Virus record (IMG/VR): IMGVR_UViG_3300009788_000100
DNA from: a virus
Lineage: Duplodnaviria > Heunggongvirae > Uroviricota > Caudoviricetes
Reading direction: 5' to 3' (one strand)
DNA: 10,164 bases
Positions within the stretch are counted from its first letter, which is position 1. Each line of letters starts with the position of its first letter. A program made the translations under genes and the position numbers. The notes beneath the pieces are model-generated. The model did no database searches, had not been told where the DNA came from, and was given only the letters and a program-made list of their open reading frames with translations. Positions 1 to 10,049 of the stretch are shown piece by piece.

Positions 1-630
1 GTAGATGCCTGCTATAGTATCTGACCCCATGAAGTTAACTAAGTGCGCAGCCCCGCCAATCATTGCTGATTCCTGGGAAGATACCCCCCGGCTTCCAAAG
101 TCATGTAGTTTGAAGGGCAGTTCAGCCGCAGCATTATCTGAGGTTTCCTTTAGGTAATGGTAGATCATTTGCTTGATGTACCACGATTGGGTGGCTACCG
201 TGATGGGGTACCATACGCGCAGAAGAAGGGTCTCTATGTAGGACACCAACCAGAAAACTTTAGGGTCAGTGGACTCCACTGACATGAGAATGTTATGCGT
301 CGGTACAACGGTTCCTTCCGGTACAGCCCGTATTCGAATAGGAAGCTTACCCTCTAGTTCCTCTGCGATGTACATCCATCCTTCGATGTTGAACGGGGTT
401 CCGTACAGTTTCGCGAAATCAGCTGTTTCGAGAACGTCTTCAACGGTCACGCGCTGGGATAGATACCGTTTTAAGTAGTACTGAAGCCCAAAGAAAACTG
501 TAAAGTCATACCTTCCGCCGGGTCTAGATTCCAGATAGCTAAACATCTTCGTAGTGTTCGGCGGATATTGTGAGAAGTGGCTAAACTTATATCCGTCTGT
601 ATCTAGTACTAGTGAAAGCAAATAGTTCAT
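1..630 (-). CDS. nadV: Nicotinamide phosphoribosyltransferase (NAMPT/NadV), N-terminal 210 aa; gene continues beyond the left edge
   Basis: Not in the ORF track; translated by hand from ATG 630 (SD AAGGAG at 643-638): MNYLLSLVLDTDGYKFSHFSQYPP...FFGLQYYLKRYL...LPIRIRAVPEGTVVP...WLVSYIETLLLRVWYPITVAT...KLHDFGSRGVSSQESAMIGGAAHLVNFMGSDTIAGIY. The motifs TDxYKxSH, AVPEG, LHDFGxRG and AHLVNFxG(S/T)DT are NAMPT hallmarks. Confidence 0.95.
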   Translation of the reverse strand, partial: MNYLLSLVLDTDGYKFSHFSQYPPNTTKMFSYLESRPGGRYDFTVFFGLQYYLKRYLSQRVTVEDVLETADFAKLYGTPFNIEGWMYIAEELEGKLPIRIRAVPEGTVVPTHNILMSVESTDPKVFWLVSYIETLLLRVWYPITVATQSWYIKQMIYHYLKETSDNAAAELPFKLHDFGSRGVSSQESAMIGGAAHLVNFMGSDTIAGIY

Positions 631-633
631 GGT

Positions 634-675
634 TCATCTCCTTGATGAGTTGTTTCGGGGACTTCCCTAGTCCCC
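634..675 (-). promoter_or_regulatory. Two tandem GGA-pentaloop hairpins in the nadV leader
   Basis: mRNA sense: GGGGACU-AGGGA-AGUCCCC (675-657) and UCAUC-AAGGA-GAUGA (648-634). The second loop is the nadV Shine-Dalgarno. Confidence 0.5.
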
Positions 676-1239
676 TAATAGATCTAAATTTTTAGCTACC
701 CTGCGTACCCAGTTTTTCCATTCTTCTAAGCCCATAACCGACTTGGAGGTATTACAGATCTTACAGCACGGCACGCAGTTGTTCTCCAAGTAACCCTTGC
801 TGTTGTCCACGCGGTCTATACCGTTATACATTATTTTACGGTCGCCCGATTTGCGTTTATACACAGTGCGCTCTGTACTGGGAAGAGTCCCGCAGTAGTA
901 ACAATTTTTGCCCACTTGTTGGCAGAAAAAGTCGAAGCTAAGATCAAATAAATACCCACGTATAGCCGCTTGCTTTTTATACTTTCTATACAACTCTCGC
1001 TTAGGCCCGCGGTTATCCGGTTGGCGGCGCCCCGGCCGCGGGCTTGAGTACCCGCATGAGCAAGACTGGTGTTTACCAGAACGGAGTGCGTAACTCCGGG
1101 CATAGGTTTCCCCTCCGCAGGCACACCTACAAAAATAAGCTTTCTTATCTTTATCTAGGTACACAACAGTAAGGCGACCAAAAACTTCGCCTGGCTTTAT
1201 AGGGTTTGTCTTTGCGATGACTCTCTCCCTCCTGCCCAT
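667..1239 (-). CDS. Free-standing HNH (His-Cys/Zn) homing endonuclease
   Basis: N-terminal GEVFGRLTV...CRCACG...LRSGKHQSCSC module, CYYC, and C-terminal GIDRVDNSKGYLENNCVPCCKICNTSK, typical of phage HNH endonucleases. Confidence 0.85.
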   Translation of the reverse strand: MGRRERVIAKTNPIKPGEVFGRLTVVYLDKDKKAYFCRCACGGETYARSYALRSGKHQSCSCGYSSPRPGRRQPDNRGPKRELYRKYKKQAAIRGYLFDLSFDFFCQQVGKNCYYCGTLPSTERTVYKRKSGDRKIMYNGIDRVDNSKGYLENNCVPCCKICNTSKSVMGLEEWKNWVRRVAKNLDLLGD

Positions 1240-1267
1240 TAGGTTCAGTTCCCTTCCTGGGAACCTA
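1240..1267 (-). promoter_or_regulatory. Hairpin sequestering the HNH ribosome-binding region
   Basis: mRNA UAGGUUCCCAGGAAGGGAACUGAACCUA-AUG has two alternative stems, GUUCCC/GGGAAC (loop AGGAA) or UAGGUUC/GAACCUA. Both enclose the purine-rich AGGAAGGG. Confidence 0.45.
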
Positions 1268-1269
1268 CA

Positions 1270-1833
1270 TTATAGTTTATATGCTGTTTCAAGAGCAGTA
1301 ATAATCTGGTCTTTATTATCCCCTGTGTATCGTGTGCTTCTTATGTGGTTGTGGTTCTTATTCCACGGTTGGTCTATGATAATGACCTGCCCTTCGGGCC
1401 AAGCTTCGAGCCAGGGTAGGTAGTAATCAGGCCAGTCTTCTACTAATAACGCACCACGAACTAAACTCTTATCCTCCGAGATAGTCATCTTTACTTCGGG
1501 GACCCACATGTTCCGCCACTCCAGCTTCTCCGACCAAGCATTTGGTGTGTCTTTTGGGGCTTTAGTCAGTATATGTCGTGTGAACCCTGCCGCTTTCGCC
1601 ATGTTGAACACGTCGAAGCCAGGTCCGTGGGGTGTGAGGTCGCGCCAGAAGCCAGGCGTACGCTGGATTTCTTTACGGCGCCGGTATAGGTGGTCGTTCT
1701 GACCAAGAGTGTCTTCAAATGTAACACTAGGCTCACCCGGGCTCTTCAAGAGGTTTAATCTTTCTAGCATTGCCGGCATGTACCTGACCAGGGTAGAATC
1801 CAAGTCAAATAGAGCTATCTTTTGTTCTTTCAT
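1270..1833 (-). CDS. HAD-superfamily 5'(3')-deoxyribonucleotidase (NT5C-like)
   Basis: Motif I FDLDSTL, PGFWRDL, ILTK, EKLEW, LLVEDWP and QPWN match the NT5C-type pattern. SD GGAGG upstream. Confidence 0.85.
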   Translation of the reverse strand: MKEQKIALFDLDSTLVRYMPAMLERLNLLKSPGEPSVTFEDTLGQNDHLYRRRKEIQRTPGFWRDLTPHGPGFDVFNMAKAAGFTRHILTKAPKDTPNAWSEKLEWRNMWVPEVKMTISEDKSLVRGALLVEDWPDYYLPWLEAWPEGQVIIIDQPWNKNHNHIRSTRYTGDNKDQIITALETAYKL

Positions 1834-1834
1834 T

Positions 1835-2887
1835 TTATACCTCCGGTAGTCTATTCGTCAGTATGCTATCGTTTAGTAGCTCTCTGCGCGTACCGAGCGT
1901 CGGGATGTTGGGATTGTGTTTGTGGCTGGTGGCCTTCTCGACATCATGCGCCGACTTGATAAAGGCGTCAACCTCTTCCTCCGAGTACTCAGAGAAGATC
2001 TGCCGTTCTACACAACGGTCTTCAATAATTTCTTTGGCTCGCGAGTGGGACATTCCAAAGCTAACACCAGTCGCTAGCTCTAACCGAACAGCATCCATAG
2101 CACGGGACATTCGCTCGATAGTGCCGACAGAAAGATAGCCCCCAGTTGTTAGGTTGAGCTTCGAATAGGTCCAGCCCACACCGTAGGTACTTTTGAGCTC
2201 GTCCTCGTCGTTATGCCCCACCTCTCCAACTCCATGCAGATCCGGAGAGGGAGCGGCCACGAGGATGCTGACTGGTACTCCAAGACCAAGACCGAGCTGA
2301 AGTACTTCGCCCTTGCTGAGCATGGCAATAGGATTGGTATCTACCTCACCGTCCCCTCCCTTCTGGTAGAAGCGGAGCCAACGGTCTTCACACTCGTTGC
2401 CGGTGCCGTGACGTATCCCATTCCCCATAAGACGGTTCATAAACCTTCCAATGGGTGCTCGTATGCAGGAACGGAACGAACCCAAGATGGTGGGATCTGC
2501 TTCTATGCGTTCCAGGATGCTATCCTTTGCATCTATATACTTGTTGTAGTTCTTCTCACCGCTAGAGGCCAGCTCTTGCGCTGCTATAGTGGTAATTTCA
2601 ACTAGGTTGTCGAAGTCAACGCCCAGGTCTAGGACAGCTAACTTAACACTGAACTTAGCAGCAACCTCCTCTGCTCTCTTCTCCGAATCTTCGGAGGAAT
2701 CAATGTCAGAGTAGACCGCAGTGATGTTTTCTGGGCCCACGGCTTTTGCCAGAAGGCCCAGCATAACAGCAGAATCCACTCCACCAGAGACATCTAGCTG
2801 GGCTCGGGGAATACCAGCTTTCTCGTGGTAGTTGCGAATGGCGGTTACTCTGTTTTCTATAAGTTTATCTACGTCGAGTACAGGCAT
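1835..2887 (-). CDS. nadE: NH3-dependent NAD+ synthetase-like protein (NadE family, no glutaminase domain)
   Basis: P-loop SGGVDS, GTGNECE, FYQKGGDGEVDTNPIAMLSKGEV, PSPDL and DEDEL. True start is probably ATG 2887 (SD GGAGG overlapping the nadM stop) rather than TTG 2899. Confidence 0.9.
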   Translation of the reverse strand: MPVLDVDKLIENRVTAIRNYHEKAGIPRAQLDVSGGVDSAVMLGLLAKAVGPENITAVYSDIDSSEDSEKRAEEVAAKFSVKLAVLDLGVDFDNLVEITTIAAQELASSGEKNYNKYIDAKDSILERIEADPTILGSFRSCIRAPIGRFMNRLMGNGIRHGTGNECEDRWLRFYQKGGDGEVDTNPIAMLSKGEVLQLGLGLGVPVSILVAAPSPDLHGVGEVGHNDEDELKSTYGVGWTYSKLNLTTGGYLSVGTIERMSRAMDAVRLELATGVSFGMSHSRAKEIIEDRCVERQIFSEYSEEEVDAFIKSAHDVEKATSHKHNPNIPTLGTRRELLNDSILTNRLPEV

Positions 2888-2889
2888 GG

Positions 2890-3945
2890 CTACCTCCAAT
2901 CCGAACGAATAAAGTAGTTGATTATGTGGAGGTGGTCTGAGAAGAAGTTCTCCTCATGTAGGGCTAAGTCACTGACTGGTAACCAGAAGGCCTCAGCTGC
3001 GTCGTCACCCCCTTTAACCGTCGGGAGGGGCCCGAGCCTATCGATCTGCATAAAGAAGGCATGCGTGATTGTACGGCCTCTCATGTCCCTTGAGGGGTGG
3101 TCGAAGACGTGGTCGCCCTTGAGCGCTCTCTTTAGCTCAGACTTAGGGAACCGGATATCGGTTTCCTCCTTCAGCTCTTCCATACAAGAATCAAAGATCT
3201 TTGTTCCTGTTTTAAGGAAGCCCCCGGGCAGTGCGAACATTCCCTTCCCCGGGTTTAGCTTACGTTTAACTAGGAGAACGTGTCCTGCTTGGATGATAAC
3301 AGCATCGGTTGTTACAAAGACCGGGGGGAAAGGTGCCGACTCCCAGCGCTTTTTATACTTTGTGAGATACGCCTGCTCCCTGACTAAATCCTCGAAGCGA
3401 CTCTCTTTGCTGTAGCCCTCCAGGTGTTTAAATACCTCAGGAGGGAGAATGCGAAAATTATTGAAGCTTGCCTTTCCTTTGGAAAAGAAGCCCTCCCCCA
3501 ACGAGAAAAGCTCTTCCCGTATATCAGTGGCGTTGGCGTCGAAGTAGTTAGGTTCCGACACTAGTTTCCACTGCGGAAAGAGCTTTAGGTAGTATGAGCT
3601 ATCGTCCTTAAAGTGTCCGATAATCTTGACATTTTTGGAGTCACCCACCTCTTGAGAGATGGCATTCTGGATTCCGGTGAGCCAAGTAAGGTCACTATAC
3701 AAATAATCCCGAGCTGGAGCGAAACTTACTCGGTCCAAGTACTCGGGAGGCAGCGCAGCGCGAATCATTTCGACTCGCTCTTCATATGTCCAAGGGTTGC
3801 GTAGACTTCTAGCGGCCCGGTAGCTTCCTACAACTATGACCAGGCGCTCCGCTTCTTCTTCCAGTGCGTTAGTGACTATCTTTAAGTGCGCTTTATGAAA
3901 AGGTTGGAATCGCCCGATGAATACACAGTATTCTGCTTTTGACAT
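2890..3945 (-). CDS. nadM: Bifunctional NMN adenylyltransferase / Nudix hydrolase (NadM-Nudix, NatV-like)
   Basis: [52 protein letters not shown], then [10 protein letters not shown]...LPGGF...EELKEET...RGRTITHAF...[10 protein letters not shown]...FFSDHLHII. Start ATG 3945 has SD AAGGAG at 3957-3952. Confidence 0.93.
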
Positions 3946-3964
3946 TCTTGTCTCCTTTGTTTCA

Positions 3965-3981
3965 GCCATCTCCCTGATGGC
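3965..3981 (-). promoter_or_regulatory. GGA-pentaloop hairpin at the predicted 5' end of the NAD operon mRNA
   Basis: GCCAUC-AGGGA-GAUGGC, located between the -10 box and the nadM SD. Confidence 0.5.
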
Positions 3982-5060: not shown

Positions 5061-5876
5061 TTAACCCAGACTGTTGGCGAGGTACATAAACGCGGTGCGG
5101 GTAGTAGTAGGAACAGCATAAGCTTGTTCTAGTTTTCTAACTTTGTTTATAATCTTTAATTTTTCTCCGCCTAGTACGGCAAAGCCGCAGCTCATGCGAT
5201 AGCTACTAGCTTGGGGAACTAAGTCGAGCAACAGTCTTATGTTTTTAAGCTGTTCGGTATCGCTACGTTCTTCCCGTTTGTAAGTTTTCCTAGGCAGGCC
5301 ATTTCGAAAGTGGCGCTTACAAGCCAGAGAGCCATCTTTATTCCAGTAAGTCGCCCAACCGTGGGGCCTCCCGTTGATTAGATACAAGCGACAGCGCTTC
5401 TTCTGATTAGCCCAGTAGTAAGTTGTATACCCGGTTAGTTGGCCTGCTTTATAGTAACAAGTTTCTGTAAGCTGTCTGTTGTGGTAGAACTTCCACAAAC
5501 CACAACGTTTACCCTTCTCGTACTGCCCCTTAATCCAGCCGGTAAGTTGGGAATCTCCGTGGTGTTTATTATCTTGCTTGTCGATTCGACTTATTCGTTT
5601 ACCGGAGGAAAACCCGAATATCTCTATGCGTCTTAGCTTTCCGAGCTTCGTTACCTTCTTTATTATATTTCCACCATCATACGTACCGATAGTTGTGCGC
5701 CCGTTCTTTTTGATCTCTATATCAGATACTATGTAACTCGAGTCCCAACTGGGTGTAATAGTAACTGTAACGAGCGCCCCCTCGATGTATCCAGCTTTTA
5801 CCCTAGATAGGGGGGTTTCGGTACATAGAGGTAAGGTGTCCCAGTCTTCCGAGCTCGTTTTCTGTGGAAGTTGCAT
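5061..5876 (-). CDS. MORN-like (YwqK-type) beta-hairpin repeat protein
   Basis: Repeats GQYEKGKRCGLWKFY / CYYKAGQLTGYTTYYW / YLINGRPHGWATYWNKDG; TAATG overlap with the upstream gene. Confidence 0.7.
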   Translation of the reverse strand: MQLPQKTSSEDWDTLPLCTETPLSRVKAGYIEGALVTVTITPSWDSSYIVSDIEIKKNGRTTIGTYDGGNIIKKVTKLGKLRRIEIFGFSSGKRISRIDKQDNKHHGDSQLTGWIKGQYEKGKRCGLWKFYHNRQLTETCYYKAGQLTGYTTYYWANQKKRCRLYLINGRPHGWATYWNKDGSLACKRHFRNGLPRKTYKREERSDTEQLKNIRLLLDLVPQASSYRMSCGFAVLGGEKLKIINKVRKLEQAYAVPTTTRTAFMYLANSLG

Positions 5877-6781: not shown

Positions 6782-7551
6782 AAGTAACTCCGGTATTCTT
6801 CTGCGTTGGAGCAATAGAGATGTGCTGACCTGTCGGTGCCCTTGTATAGGCTAACATTGACTGCGCCCGGTTTAGTGTCTTCCTCCCAGTTATCCCAGTC
6901 GTTTGGTACTTCGTGCATGTCGCATATTGTTTGCATTCCCGCCGAAGCAAAAGGGTACGCTAAACAGTCGTGCATGGTGTCCTTTTCTATTCCTCGGGCA
7001 GCGCTAAAGCGGATACCGGTTACGTCACAACCCTTCAGCTTAGCTCCATAGAATTTAGTACCATGGTTGACGATAACATTTTCTAAAAGGGTTCCTTCAA
7101 TTAAAGCGTTCGAGAGGTTAGCGTTGCCAAAATTAGATCCTGACAAATGGCTAACAGTAATAAAGGCATTCTCCAGAAGAGCATTAGTAAAATCTACGGT
7201 ACCTATGCACCCATAGATCTGCAAGCTTGAAACATCGGCGCCATTAAACTCAGTTTTGTGGAAGGTACACTCGATAAAATGTAGTACGTCCGCGCCGATG
7301 TTGTCAAAACAAACTTTAGAAAGGTCACACCGGTTGAAGGTGGTGCCGCTGAAATCAGCAAGTGAAAAGTCCCAACCCTTTAACTTACAGTTTAAAAACT
7401 CACAGTCCTCAAAATACCCGCCGTCAAGGTGGCGTGCATTAGATTCGTTAATTTCTAAGCCTTCTATTCGTAGCCCTGCCCAACGCTGTCCCTCGAACGA
7501 TAAGCCTTGTTGGCACTGGTAGAAAAACTCTAACTCTCTACCTTTTTTCAC
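6778..7551 (-). CDS. Pentapeptide-repeat protein
   Basis: Long 5-residue periodicity (FEDCE FLNCK LKGWD FSLAD FSGTT FNRCD LSKVC ... LSGSN FGNAN LSNAL IEGTL LENVI); GTG start with GGAG SD. Confidence 0.88.
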   Translation of the reverse strand: MKKGRELEFFYQCQQGLSFEGQRWAGLRIEGLEINESNARHLDGGYFEDCEFLNCKLKGWDFSLADFSGTTFNRCDLSKVCFDNIGADVLHFIECTFHKTEFNGADVSSLQIYGCIGTVDFTNALLENAFITVSHLSGSNFGNANLSNALIEGTLLENVIVNHGTKFYGAKLKGCDVTGIRFSAARGIEKDTMHDCLAYPFASAGMQTICDMHEVPNDWDNWEEDTKPGAVNVSLYKGTDRSAHLYCSNAEEYRSYL

Positions 7552-8254
7552 TCAAGCTCCCCCGGAATTCATCAATGTTGGAGCACTCTAACACGGCACG
7601 TTCACCAAAGCCCCACAAGTGTTTACGGTAGTGGGTGGCAGCGGCTTCTCCGTAGTACCCTCCGCAGCTCCATTGTTCGTCGGCATCATCAAGGTGGCCG
7701 TATTTCTCCGCTGTTTCCTTCTTGGACTTTACAACCTGCTGGGCGGGGGAACGGTAGTGTTTAACAGTTTTTAGGGGTTTGGGGTCTACTAGTTCCCTTA
7801 GAGATGTTTTTATTTTTGACGGCGGAAGGGGGATTGGGTTATTCCCAACCTTCGAGTACTTAGGCGCTACTGTATAAGTGCCCCTTTCAAGGTCTAAGAT
7901 AGCCGAAATCCCTTTACTATTGCCGAGCAGTCCCTGGCAAGTCATCCCGAAATTACAGGTTGTTAAACCCTCTGTTGCCTCGAAATCAGTCCCATAAAAA
8001 CTACAACTGGAAAACTCGCATTTCCGGAAGCGCACCTTCGAGAGAAAAGCGTTATCGAAGTTACAGGCACTGAACTTGGTGTTTGTTATTAACATCTCAC
8101 GCATATCAGCGGTCACGAAGTCACAGTTGTAGTAAACACCCCCTGTGATTCGAGTTCCAACCATACGCGCTAGAAAGAAAGAAGCGTGGCGGTAGTCCCC
8201 GGTGAAGGTGTGCCCCACGGGGAAACGTTTTCGGCTGTGATTAGTATTGCTCAT
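7538..8254 (-). CDS. Pentapeptide-repeat protein with basic C-terminal extension
   Basis: YYNCD FVTAD MREML ITNTK FSACN FDNAF LSKVR FRKCE FSSCS FYGTD. Start is uncertain: ATG 8254 preferred over TTG 8341; neither has a clear SD. Confidence 0.75.
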   Translation of the reverse strand: MSNTNHSRKRFPVGHTFTGDYRHASFFLARMVGTRITGGVYYNCDFVTADMREMLITNTKFSACNFDNAFLSKVRFRKCEFSSCSFYGTDFEATEGLTTCNFGMTCQGLLGNSKGISAILDLERGTYTVAPKYSKVGNNPIPLPPSKIKTSLRELVDPKPLKTVKHYRSPAQQVVKSKKETAEKYGHLDDADEQWSCGGYYGEAAATHYRKHLWGFGERAVLECSNIDEFRGSLSEKR

Positions 8255-8271
8255 GGCTTTGTATTTAAAAG

Positions 8272-8859
8272 TTGAACGTCGGCCCCCCGGGGGCAGGCAA
8301 TGGTAACTTTCGGTATGGCCGTCCGGCGGCTTTATTAGCAATTCTCGTGGAGATACGACTGTTATCGATTAGACTGGCACTTGGACAGAATTACTGAGAG
8401 TTCTACCTTAGCTTTGTGTAACCATTGTTTCTCAGGGGGAGTAGTTCGCCCTCCGCCCGGCCAAGTATTGGGCAAGGTTTTCCTCGGTTGAGAACTAATG
8501 TTTCACAAACACAGCAGCTTCGCTCTAAGTAATTGCTGTTTAGTGCTTCACTAACATTCCCTCTAACTTCATCAAAAAAAAACGATGTCGTTAGGTTGCT
8601 TAGCCCTACAGTACATACACTGCCTGGAGGCTGCTTTTCGGTTTATGCTAAAGCATACCCCGGAAAGCATCCCATTTCCTTTTCTTAATAAAATTGCCAG
8701 GAGCGCCATGCGAGCTTGTTAGCATACAACACAAGCAGCATCTCCTTCGAGGATATGACAACACTTTCCCTTCCCGCGCTGTACATACACGTTCCAGTTG
8801 GTGTTAGCTAATCGCCGAAGTTACACATCTAACCAACCATAAAGGCGGCCGACGTTCAA
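8272..8859 (-). ncRNA. Candidate large structured ncRNA (~590 nt), unidentified
   Basis: Nested end-to-end complementarity: 8859-8847/8284-8272 (13 bp perfect), 8828-8815/8313-8300, 8814-8808/8372-8366 and 8798-8794/8377-8373, plus many local hairpins. No intact ORF of 60 aa or more inside. Confidence 0.5.
8272..8859. repeat. 13-bp perfect inverted repeat TTGAACGTCGGCC bounding a 588-bp segment
   Basis: Plus strand ttgaacgtcggcc at 8272-8284 and ggccgacgttcaa at 8847-8859. Confidence 0.95.
8403..8670 (-). pseudogene. Possible frameshifted CxxC...CxxC small protein (split at a T9 run)
   Basis: ATG 8670 with AGGA SD gives 32 aa ending TTT TTT TGA. The +1 frame continues 56 aa to TAG 8403. Overlaps the ncRNA candidate, so it may be spurious. 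Confidence 0.25.
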
Positions 8860-8862
8860 AAT

Positions 8863-9150
8863 TGGGGGCGCGGCGGGGATTTGAACCCCGCTCCACCGCA
8901 TTGTGGCTACAACAGCCAATGTTAACTAGGTCCGCACTCTGAAAATTTGTTCTCTTGTTACCGTTTTGGAGGCGGTATTCAAGTATTCCTTTTTAACAGA
9001 AGGGTCTCTAGTTTAGCCATTGGGGTGTAGCACGCGGTAAGACATATTCAGAGGGGACGGACATGCAGTCCCAATTGATTAGTGCCCTGAGGTACTCACG
9101 GAGAGGACGTGAGCAGCTCAACCTCTATAACCAGGCATGAGGTACGCGCC
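8863..9150 (-). ncRNA. tRNA-like RNA (288 nt) with ~230-nt internal expansion
   Basis: 5' GGCGCG-UA-CCUC-AUGCCUGGUUAUA-GAGG (acceptor strand plus D arm). 3' GCGGGG-UUCAAAU-CCCCGC-CGCGCC-C-CCA (T arm, complementary acceptor strand, encoded CCA). Confidence 0.55.
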
Positions 9151-9183
9151 GGGGAGATTCCACATACGAAGTGGTCACTCCCC
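9151..9183 (-). other. GC-rich hairpin immediately 5' of the tRNA-like RNA
   Basis: GGGGAG-UGA-CCAC-UUCGUAU-GUGG-AAU-CUCCCC ends exactly at the first G of the acceptor stem. No U-tract, so not called a terminator. Confidence 0.55.
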
Positions 9184-9197
9184 CCCTTCAACCTTTT

Positions 9198-10049
9198 CTA
9201 TCTCAGTTTCTTAATTATCCTCATTCTTTGTACGGCTCGCAGTGTTTCTTTTAGAATGGCCATCACTGCCTGCCGCGTAATCCTCTGATCTTGTTTGTTC
9301 GTATAGCCCAGCACCTCTAGCTGTTCTGATATTTCTTTCAGAGTGTAGTCTAGTGCTCGCATTGAAAGCACTGCGAAACGCTTTTCCCCAAGAGACTCCC
9401 GCAGCTGTTCGCTAAGCTGACGATTAGAGACTATTTCCTCTACGATTTCATTCTCTTTTGGGTACTTACTTAGGACGTCATCTGACACTACAAGAGATAG
9501 AGATTCCATTGCACGTTTGGCCAATGGGGCATACTTCATCTTTGAGTGGCCGGCGATGTTTCCTAACTTACGCTTTAGTTCTCTGAGATCCCTCAACACT
9601 AGAGGATTGAGTTCCGCTTCTATTTCATGCTCCTCTACAGCGATTATAGCTGTGATACTATCGGAGTCCTCCATAAAAAGTGGTTCTCTATCTAACAGGC
9701 GCTGCATTTGCTTAACGTACGAAGCGGCTTTAGCTACGTGCGTCGGTACATAGATAGGATTTTCATTACCGATGCAGTACTCATACATTTTACCTTTCAT
9801 ACGATAAATAGCATAGGTATGAAAGTCTGTTGAGCGCTCGGGGTTGAAGTCCCGGCAGGCAAGGACCAGCCCAAACAAAGCCTCTTGGACCAGATCGTCA
9901 TATTCCACACGAGTACGTTTGTACTTGTGAGCCATCTTTTGAATCAAGCGCAAGTACTCGTCATAGTGGCGCTCCACGTCTTTACGCGCTTGCTCGGGGA
10001 GCGCTTTAGTTTTGGTTAACAACGCCTTGTCCTCTTTGTTTTCTGCCAC
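9198..10049 (-). CDS. Sigma-70 family RNA polymerase sigma factor (group 3, FliA/SigF-like), probably phage-encoded
   Basis: Region 2 YDDLVQEALFGLVLACRDFNPERSTDFHTYAIYRMKGKM; region-4-like LGEKRFAVLSMRALDYTLKEISEQL; GTG start with GAGGG SD. Confidence 0.85.
   Translation of the reverse strand: MAENKEDKALLTKTKALPEQARKDVERHYDEYLRLIQKMAHKYKRTRVEYDDLVQEALFGLVLACRDFNPERSTDFHTYAIYRMKGKMYEYCIGNENPIYVPTHVAKAASYVKQMQRLLDREPLFMEDSDSITAIIAVEEHEIEAELNPLVLRDLRELKRKLGNIAGHSKMKYAPLAKRAMESLSLVVSDDVLSKYPKENEIVEEIVSNRQLSEQLRESLGEKRFAVLSMRALDYTLKEISEQLEVLGYTNKQDQRITRQAVMAILKETLRAVQRMRIIKKLR

Follow-up and report, generated by a model that had tools for sequence, protein, structure and literature searches.

Between the sigma-factor gene and the first pentapeptide-repeat gene of the virus record IMGVR_UViG_3300009788_000100 (Caudoviricetes) lies a 288-nt segment that has the two ends of a tRNA and a very large insert between them, which raises the question of what kind of RNA, if any, is made from it. 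The segment occupies positions 8863–9150 of the minus strand of the 10,164-nt stretch of DNA that was analysed (hereafter the window), within the window's sole long stretch free of open reading frames (ORFs), and is termed here the tRNA-like module (TLM). An initial annotation had called it an undescribed tRNA mimic. This designation holds, since its frame covaries in 13 loci and it is matched neither by Rfam at gathering scores nor by ARAGORN at default; our analysis shows that an uncultured lineage of jumbo phages really does carry the TLM as a conserved RNA gene, one outside described RNA families. Beyond what the annotation had noticed, the module has a conserved insert of three arms and carries a tRNA-Trp-type loop on a lengthened arm.

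Relatives were found through the neighbouring sigma protein, for which metagenome-derived protein sets contain 57 homologues, in part from contigs of at least 300 kb. Twelve syntenic contigs were taken from these homologues, most of the contigs having a gap of 570–1030 nt between the sigma gene and the pentapeptide genes; when nine gaps were aligned, all nine proved to have kept both halves, 5′ and 3′, of the tRNA-like element. A pattern scan of metagenome contigs returned five loci, of which three were chance matches inside coding sequence and two (L014 and L018) were real, their TLMs likewise lying directly 3′ of a sigma orthologue. Members L012 and L019 were recognised by eye. The resulting family comprises 13 distinct sequences (that of the window and 12 others), 158–361 nt in length, on metagenomic contigs of up to 315 kb. 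The TLM of the window shares all of the family traits, namely a 6-bp acceptor stem, U-A, a 4-bp D stem, three arms (H1, H2 and H3), a UGGA linker, a T stem of 5–6 bp and a position after the sigma gene. A covariance model built from four short relatives alone recovered exactly 8863–9150, end to end (24.9 bits, E 5e-6), with no second copy in the window and no copy in the related locus L011. Covariation was counted in an alignment of the 13 sequences (A2) or, for arms H1 and H2, among the six long members.

Established tools and collections do not contain this family. At default settings, the tRNA, tmRNA and intron modes of ARAGORN called no gene in the window and 10 related loci, and Rfam 15 at gathering scores gave no match in the same sequences, its tRNA model included. 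At E ≤ 10, in the two regions searched, Rfam returned sub-threshold echoes alone (mascRNA, tRNA-Sec and the tmRNA T arm); in the window these were a mascRNA-like match of 22.8 bits and a 12-bit tmRNA match confined to the T arm. There was also no Rfam match to YrlA, skipping-rope, DUF2693-FD, salivarius-1, GOLLD or ROOL, either at gathering scores (window and 10 loci) or at E ≤ 10 (two regions); all of these families presumably have models in Rfam 15. No relative was found in INPHARED phages with DNA and sigma protein queries, two patterns had no match in contigs of GTDB representative genomes, and our literature search found no description of the TLM RNA. In IMG/VR, the sigma protein and three RNA patterns found no member, and a looser 3′ pattern retrieved only a non-member (L020; IMGVR_UViG_3300005613_000001, 527 kb). 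At ~7812–8285 on the minus strand, that record carries three tRNA-shaped genes of ~80 nt that ARAGORN misses, with loops UUUAGAA, CUUAAAA and UUCAAAA (Leu anticodons UAG, UAA and CAA), a variable loop of just 5 nt (UGGAU) and a D loop that is oversized; ordinary class II tRNA-Leu genes for these three anticodons lie beside them. The three tRNA-shaped genes were considered as TLM family members and rejected.

The tRNA frame of the window's TLM consists of the following parts.

9145–9150, minus strand: 5′ strand of the acceptor stem, GGCGCG, paired with CGCGCC at 8867–8872
9122–9144, minus strand: U8-A9 (9144–9143) and the D arm, with CCUC, a 13-nt loop containing GG, and GAGG; U8, A9, the A14 equivalent and GAGG are invariant or nearly so
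8892–8894, minus strand: GGA (UGGA) linker at the variable-loop position, between H3 and the T arm; T256, G257, G258 and A259 are invariant in A2
8873–8891, minus strand: T arm, GCGGGG-UUCAAAU-CCCCGC; GGUUC-A-UCC is invariant and the stem stays paired despite sequence change
8863–8872, minus strand: 3′ strand of the acceptor stem, CGCGCC, with discriminator C and encoded CCA (8866–8863), assigned by sequence and pairing

All the tRNA-shaped features that had been described here (acceptor, U8/A14-like positions, D stem, D-loop GG and T loop) are present both in the sequence and in its fold. The unconstrained minimum-free-energy fold of the 288 nt retains the 6-bp acceptor, the D arm and the 6-bp T arm, with a z of −4.46, and 0 of 200 shuffled sequences fold as well. 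Covariation in homologues, which the initial annotation had set as a check, is found in the frame: acceptor, D and T pairing is retained in all 13 sequences. In the acceptor, each of the six pairs changes on both sides and 78 of 78 cells are canonical, with variants such as GACGUG/CACGUC, GGCACA/UGUGCC and AGUGUG/CGCACU. The D stem is canonical in 52 of 52 cells, CCUC/GAGG becoming GCUC/GAGC in L010. The T stem differs in sequence at nearly every locus with its pairing kept, its outermost (sixth) pair being GC, UA or CG in 13/13, while L013 and L001 have just five good T-stem pairs. Little or no variation is seen at the equivalents of U8, A9, A14, G18G19 and A21 or in the T loop GGUUCRAAUCC. 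The top half and elbow of a tRNA, with the nucleotides through which D loop and T loop touch, are intact. Judged by these compensatory changes, the frame is kept as a structure under selection.

In tRNA numbering, nucleotide 7 is absent and position 66 pairs with the last linker nucleotide in place of the 7:66 pair, so that the acceptor and T stems form a 6+6 stack of ~12 bp, as had been proposed for the window and is now supported by covariation. Allo-tRNAs similarly keep a 12-bp stack by redistributing base pairs between the two stems (8/4 or 9/3; PMC5389517), in a sense opposite to the 6/6 of the TLM and in RNAs that decode and are of normal size. The discriminator C and CCA noted earlier are indeed encoded in the window but are not fixed across the family, where NCCA is encoded in 7/13, the remainder having CUA (three times), UCA, GCG or UCU, and where all four bases (C, A, G and U) occur as discriminator. 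Encoded NCCA is nevertheless far above chance in frequency, and its absence elsewhere takes the form of near-variants. Such a mix of encoded and non-encoded CCA is usual for ordinary tRNA genes.

Between the D arm and the linker that precedes the T arm, ~95 to 270 nt are inserted (~95 nt in the smallest members), which in the window are organised as follows.

9088–9120, minus strand: arm H1, a 12-bp hairpin with loop UCCUCUC; a hairpin is found at the equivalent place in 13/13
9040–9087, minus strand: arm H2, an irregular hairpin with the 9-nt loop UGCAUGUCC and a pyrimidine-rich 3′ strand; nine compensatory pairs among the six long members
8894–9039, minus strand: arm H3, long and irregular, 146 nt with ~45 predicted bp; its base (9039–9018/8921–8894) is the helix D of the initial annotation
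8959–8977, minus strand: tip of H3, UACCG-CCUCCAAAA-CGGUA, an anticodon-like hairpin holding U-CCA-AA; NUCCAAN sits on covarying stems

Constrained folding gave the same order in 13/13, with acceptor, U-A, D arm, H1, H2, H3, (U)GGA and T arm separated by almost no linker nucleotides. In every member, therefore, three arms that radiate from one and the same junction take the place of the single anticodon arm, H1 and H2 being inserted after position 26. The hairpin that had been noticed at 9120–9088 is confirmed as H1, in which eight pairs change on both sides among the six long members and the loop motif CCUC(A/U)C recurs in 9/13. The long-range helix D is likewise borne out as the covarying base of H3, where AC-NN.../...NN-GU takes the forms CCGC/GCGG, CUGC/GCAG, CCGU/ACGG, CUUGG/CCAGG and CGAU/AUCG over the 13 sequences. 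By contrast, the crossing helix B (9062–9047/8943–8930), from which a pseudoknotted insert had been proposed, was rejected: its CUCUGAA/UUCAGAG pairing is specific to the window, and the strand 9062–9047 belongs to the local arm H2, whose mid-stem covaries in relatives (UCA/UGA, CCGA/UCGG, UCGG/CCGA, UUAG/CUAA and CCAG/CUGG). Because helix B is not conserved, no pseudoknot is supported. The loop of H2 is identical in the window, L001, L018 and L008, all long members, and within the window no target for it was found beyond chance.

A weak tRNA-Sec-like Rfam match in L010 pointed to a small hairpin inside H3. In 8/13 members this hairpin carries a 7-nt loop of the form N-U-C-C-A-A-N on stems of differing sequence: CUCCAAA in L018, L008 and L006, C-CUCCAAA-A in the window (8972–8964), GUCCAAA in L010 and L014, UUCCAAC in L003 and GUCCAAU in L009. 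The anticodon loop of E. coli tRNA-Trp (trpT) is identical to the first of these, CUCCAAA. When the 5′ frame, the hairpin and the sequence from UGGA to the 3′ end were joined in silico, ARAGORN called tRNA-Trp(CCA) in three of eight cases at default (L018, L008 and L006) and, with a relaxed threshold, in the window as a fourth. Because of these calls, descent from a tRNA-Trp(CCA) gene is probably the simplest origin of the TLM. With bacterial tRNA-Trp(CCA) it shares the acceptor stem, U8, a D arm with GG, a T arm with GGUUCGAAUCC and an NCCA tail, besides the trpT-like hairpin loop. It has the 12-bp stack, the G18G19 of the D arm, the UUCRANY T loop, U8 and A14 of a canonical tRNA, but it is not a cloverleaf of ~70–95 nt that tRNA finders recognise: it measures 158–361 nt, has 6+6 stems, two extra arms after position 26 and a variable discriminator, and is missed by ARAGORN and by the Rfam tRNA model. 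Nor does the anticodon-like loop stand at the fixed distance given by a 5-bp stem on the D stem, as the arm beneath it has 17–18 predicted bp in short members and 44–57 in long ones. An arm so long and variable, and a loop missing in some members, argue against a role in ribosomal decoding and suggest that the loop is dispensable. Within the window, no UUUGGAG target for the H3 loop was found. A kissing contact between the UCCA loop of H3 and a downstream hairpin loop was also considered and rejected, the latter varying (CUGGA, CCGGA, CUAGA, UUAACC) without matching changes.

The place of the TLM in the genome offers a view of how such an RNA could be made. Two features precede it.

9198–10049, minus strand: sigma-70-family gene (Pfam Sigma70_r2), of which an orthologue lies directly 5′ of the TLM in 13/13 loci
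9151–9197, minus strand: 47-nt spacer after the sigma stop, folding into a stable hairpin (−16.7 kcal/mol) whose last nucleotide directly precedes the 5′ end of the TLM

Across the 13 loci the TLM begins 8–57 nt 3′ of the sigma stop, a distance that in most is too small for a promoter of its own, and a scan of 8200–9400 revealed neither a sigma-70-type promoter pattern nor one of an intrinsic terminator (phage-specific promoters lie outside such a scan). Spacers of 40–57 nt fold into a stable hairpin of −11 to −18 kcal/mol (−9 to −18 for long spacers taken together) that ends 0–2 nt before the first G of the acceptor; the leader hairpins of L001, L003, L018, L006, L005 and L019 resemble that of the window without being alignable with it, and they are absent where the spacer is 8–23 nt. 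From the spacing, the absence of promoter and terminator patterns in the scanned region and the leader hairpins, we infer that the TLM is co-transcribed with the sigma gene and released by RNase P. For recognition, RNase P, the CCA-adding enzyme and the enzymes of 3′ processing depend on the acceptor/T stack and elbow, not on the anticodon arm.

These data are consistent with a reading to which we give about an even chance, that the TLM is a non-decoding mimic derived from tRNA-Trp, co-transcribed and then excised by tRNA processing, with the tRNA frame serving as a scaffold for the arms. On this reading, a single transcript would cover the module and the sigma-factor gene upstream of it; RNase P would cleave at 9150/9151, leaving the sigma mRNA with a protective 3′ hairpin; and the 3′ end would be trimmed to, or completed with, CCA. 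The product would build up as a stable RNA of L shape, taking no part in decoding and probably uncharged. Its tRNA frame would provide for processing and stability while presenting the arms to a putative partner, the presented parts being the CU-rich loops of H1 and H2 and, on H3, the mimic of the tRNA-Trp anticodon loop. H3 itself would then be a lengthened anticodon arm (17–57 predicted bp), in most members still capped by N-U-CCA-A-N. As to charging, the variable discriminator argues against aminoacylation by one synthetase, and charging also appears unlikely for the synthetases of Ala, Ser, Leu and His, which do not read the anticodon, because the acceptor or discriminator determinants on which these enzymes depend are absent or not conserved. 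The excised RNA most likely has a function of its own, because three conserved arms far exceed the needs of a processing signal. One such function, which we rate as a minority possibility, is that of a trans-acting non-decoding mimic, a tRNA-Trp with rRNA-style expansion segments made by host tRNA processing. It could then be a sink for a host factor with an affinity for tRNA-Trp or for tRNA 3′ ends, for instance a synthetase, a modification enzyme, an anticodon nuclease or a toxin that modifies tRNA ends; alternatively, it could anchor the large RNA next to it on machinery that binds tRNAs. A decoy for a host factor directed at tRNA-Trp or at tRNA ends is speculative.

Besides promoters of a phage-specific kind, read by the phage's own sigma factor, several points weigh against the reading as a processed tRNA-Trp derivative. 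The Trp-like loop is absent or unclear in 5/13 members (L001, L005, L013, L012 and L019), and hence is not essential to every member and could be a relic or an unrelated motif. Its UCCA is complementary to the UGGA linker, so a tertiary contact within the molecule may be an alternative reading of its conservation; because both elements are invariant, such a contact is beyond the reach of covariation. Processing, stability and the lack of charging are all deduced from sequence, and a leader hairpin in which pairing extends to position −1 might impede RNase P instead of helping it.

Of the competing explanations, the one that survives best is that the TLM is purely cis-acting 'tRNA punctuation', which would recruit RNase P and 3′ enzymes to separate the sigma mRNA, the downstream RNA and the pentapeptide mRNA, the excised piece being functionless. 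We think this unlikely, though a serious contender. Its fixed place directly after the sigma stop in 13/13 loci and the leader hairpins that abut the TLM 5′ end would both be expected, and they lend the earlier suggestion of a 'processing handle' circumstantial support that makes it plausible; in L012, moreover, the TLM lies directly between the sigma and pentapeptide genes with no other RNA. The weak mascRNA-like matches point the same way. Like the TLM, mascRNA and menRNA (the 3′-end elements of MALAT1 and NEAT1) are tRNA-like folds within a longer transcript with a stabilising structure just upstream of the RNase P site, which in the TLM is a predicted one. The similarity is weak, at 22.8 and 19.3 bits against a gathering threshold of 42.5, which places the TLM outside that family, and mascRNA and menRNA are eukaryotic, ~60 nt long and without large arms. 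It is these arms that speak against mere punctuation: a tRNA-like fold of 60–75 nt would be enough for processing, whereas the three extra arms of 95–270 nt maintain their architecture through many compensatory changes and bear the conserved loops UGCAUGUCC, CCUCAC and NUCCAAN.

The existence of a second conserved RNA next to the TLM suggests another explanation, in which the TLM would be the 5′ domain of one ornate phage RNA of ~850–950 nt, similar to GOLLD or ROOL. The neighbour in question is the downstream conserved RNA region (DSR).

8255–8862, minus strand: DSR, a non-coding, separable module with conserved blocks and covarying hairpins

Its blocks are GGCGAUUG, GCUAAUAA..AUAGC, GUAUGUAC..UAAGC and CAAUAAAGCYGCYGGACRGCCAU, and its hairpins covary (GCUG/CAGC to GCCG/CGGC). 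A DSR of ~370–640 nt lies 3′ of the TLM in 10–11 of the 13 loci, with counterparts in L001, L003, L005, L006, L008, L009, L010, L013, L014 and L018, and had no match in Rfam; a role as a CsrA-type GGA sponge was rejected, as GGA is not enriched. At L012 (4943–5160; sigma 46% identical), the TLM lies in a tight interval from the sigma gene to the pentapeptide gene, no downstream RNA follows it, and a gene call at 5118, probably overlong, overlaps its 3′ end. At L011 (4871–5300; sigma 56% identical), there is no TLM and the downstream motif CAAUAAAGCUGCUGGACAG is kept.

A single large RNA would account for these DSR blocks with their covarying hairpins 3′ of the TLM, and GOLLD and ROOL provide a precedent, being large conserved phage RNAs found near tRNA islands, with tRNAs sometimes in the GOLLD linker (bioRxiv 10.1101/2024.12.08.627333). 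As in those systems, a large conserved phage non-coding RNA stands here directly beside a tRNA(-like) gene, but it is the tRNA partner itself that has been remodelled. We nonetheless regard the single-RNA explanation as improbable. The two modules are separable, because L012 has a TLM only and L011 the downstream motif only; neither GOLLD nor ROOL was matched in Rfam even at E ≤ 10; and no covarying contact between the modules was found, the M4 loop (CUGGA, CCGGA, CUAGA) failing to track the invariant UCCA loop.

It is very unlikely that the TLM is a genuine tRNA-Trp gene with unusual intervening sequences whose removal would yield a decoding tRNA, even though every tRNA part, including a hairpin with the CCA anticodon, can be found in 8/13 members and the in-silico joins are called as tRNA-Trp. 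This would need two excisions flanking an intact anticodon hairpin, and we know of no bacterial mechanism for such a pair of excisions. The acceptor stem has 6 bp; the discriminator, which a tRNA for one amino acid normally keeps, is not conserved; and the anticodon hairpin is lost in several members that retain the frame. ARAGORN in intron mode found nothing at default and at relaxed settings assigned twelve different anticodons among the 13 sequences, which leaves no intron solution that all share. A group I intron, whose core (P3–P9) in the anticodon loop takes up at least ~200 nt, would not fit into the smallest excess over a tRNA, the ~82 nt of L019. Together with the lack of an Rfam intron match at E ≤ 10, which bears out the earlier statement that no group I core was found, and an anticodon-like loop that is uninterrupted, this led us to reject a tRNA with a group I intron. 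Lak megaphages, whose tRNAs have 'enigmatic introns' (PMC6784885), do offer a precedent for oversized tRNA-shaped genes in very large phage genomes. Their predicted insertions lie within normal tRNAs with assignable anticodons; those of the TLM flank an anticodon-like hairpin in an altered frame.

Finally, a tmRNA-like ribosome-rescue RNA, one of the earlier suggestions, can be practically discounted: the TLM resembles tmRNA in that the two ends of a large RNA come together as a tRNA-like acceptor/T domain around a large internal domain, in the purine linker before its T arm and in the weak 12-bit Rfam match to the T arm alone, but G3-U70, already noted as absent from the window, occurs in 0/13 (the third pair is C-G in 12 and U-A in 1), the D stem is a real helix, the discriminator varies, no pseudoknot is supported, ARAGORN -m reports none at default and inconsistent, unrelated 'tags' in 5/13 at relaxed settings, no tag frame is conserved, and in the short members an internal domain that spans ~95–270 nt across the family leaves no room for a tag frame and pseudoknots.

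The surrounding genes are in keeping with the phage assignment. The long ORFs of the window are all on the minus strand and look like a piece of a large phage genome. Pfam identified an NAD synthase, a 5′-nucleotidase, two pentapeptide-repeat proteins, the sigma-70-family protein and a cytidylyltransferase-like/Nudix fusion protein, the latter with what we take to be the domain pair of NadR-type NMN adenylyltransferases. A 3′-partial ORF has its matches in Synechococcus phages B3 and B23, in genes whose annotation is nicotinamide phosphoribosyltransferase; with the fusion protein and the NAD synthase, it makes up an NAD-metabolism-like cluster at 1–3969 (minus strand), and the 5′-nucleotidase gene is close by. 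Such auxiliary metabolism is typical of large phages. Upstream, the same gene order is kept in all relatives (L001–L013): a COOH-NH2 ligase-type protein, an unannotated protein of ~330 aa with a faint RimK/ATP-grasp match, a GNAT acetyltransferase, a small protein, a RuvB-like AAA+ ATPase and sigma. On the other side, the program-called ORF 7538–8341 begins at a TTG within a conserved RNA motif. Because relatives align only from residue 30 on (MSNTNH...), the true start of this pentapeptide-repeat gene is probably the ATG at 8254, which would make 8255–9197 the non-coding gap.

Viruses and cells repeatedly use tRNA mimicry to hijack tRNA-handling enzymes. To our knowledge, few bacterial or phage tRNA mimics have been described, and each gave new biology (tmRNA, Y-like RNAs and viral 3′ tRNA-like structures). 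In the engineered 'tRNA scaffold', an RNA of interest replaces the anticodon arm and cellular enzymes process and stabilise the product. That design is artificial, whereas the arrangement in the TLM is natural and conserved: the family is a natural 'tRNA scaffold', a tRNA frame with large, structured and evolving arms, of a kind that standard tRNA and tmRNA finders and Rfam overlook. It occurs in huge, little-understood phages, with a phage sigma factor and another large conserved RNA as neighbours, and provides a testable object for how tRNA genes turn into other RNAs and for the roles of large phage non-coding RNAs. It also bears on the question of phage RNA decoys against tRNA-directed defences. 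If the TLM does act in trans, it would represent a new kind of phage counter-defence or takeover RNA.

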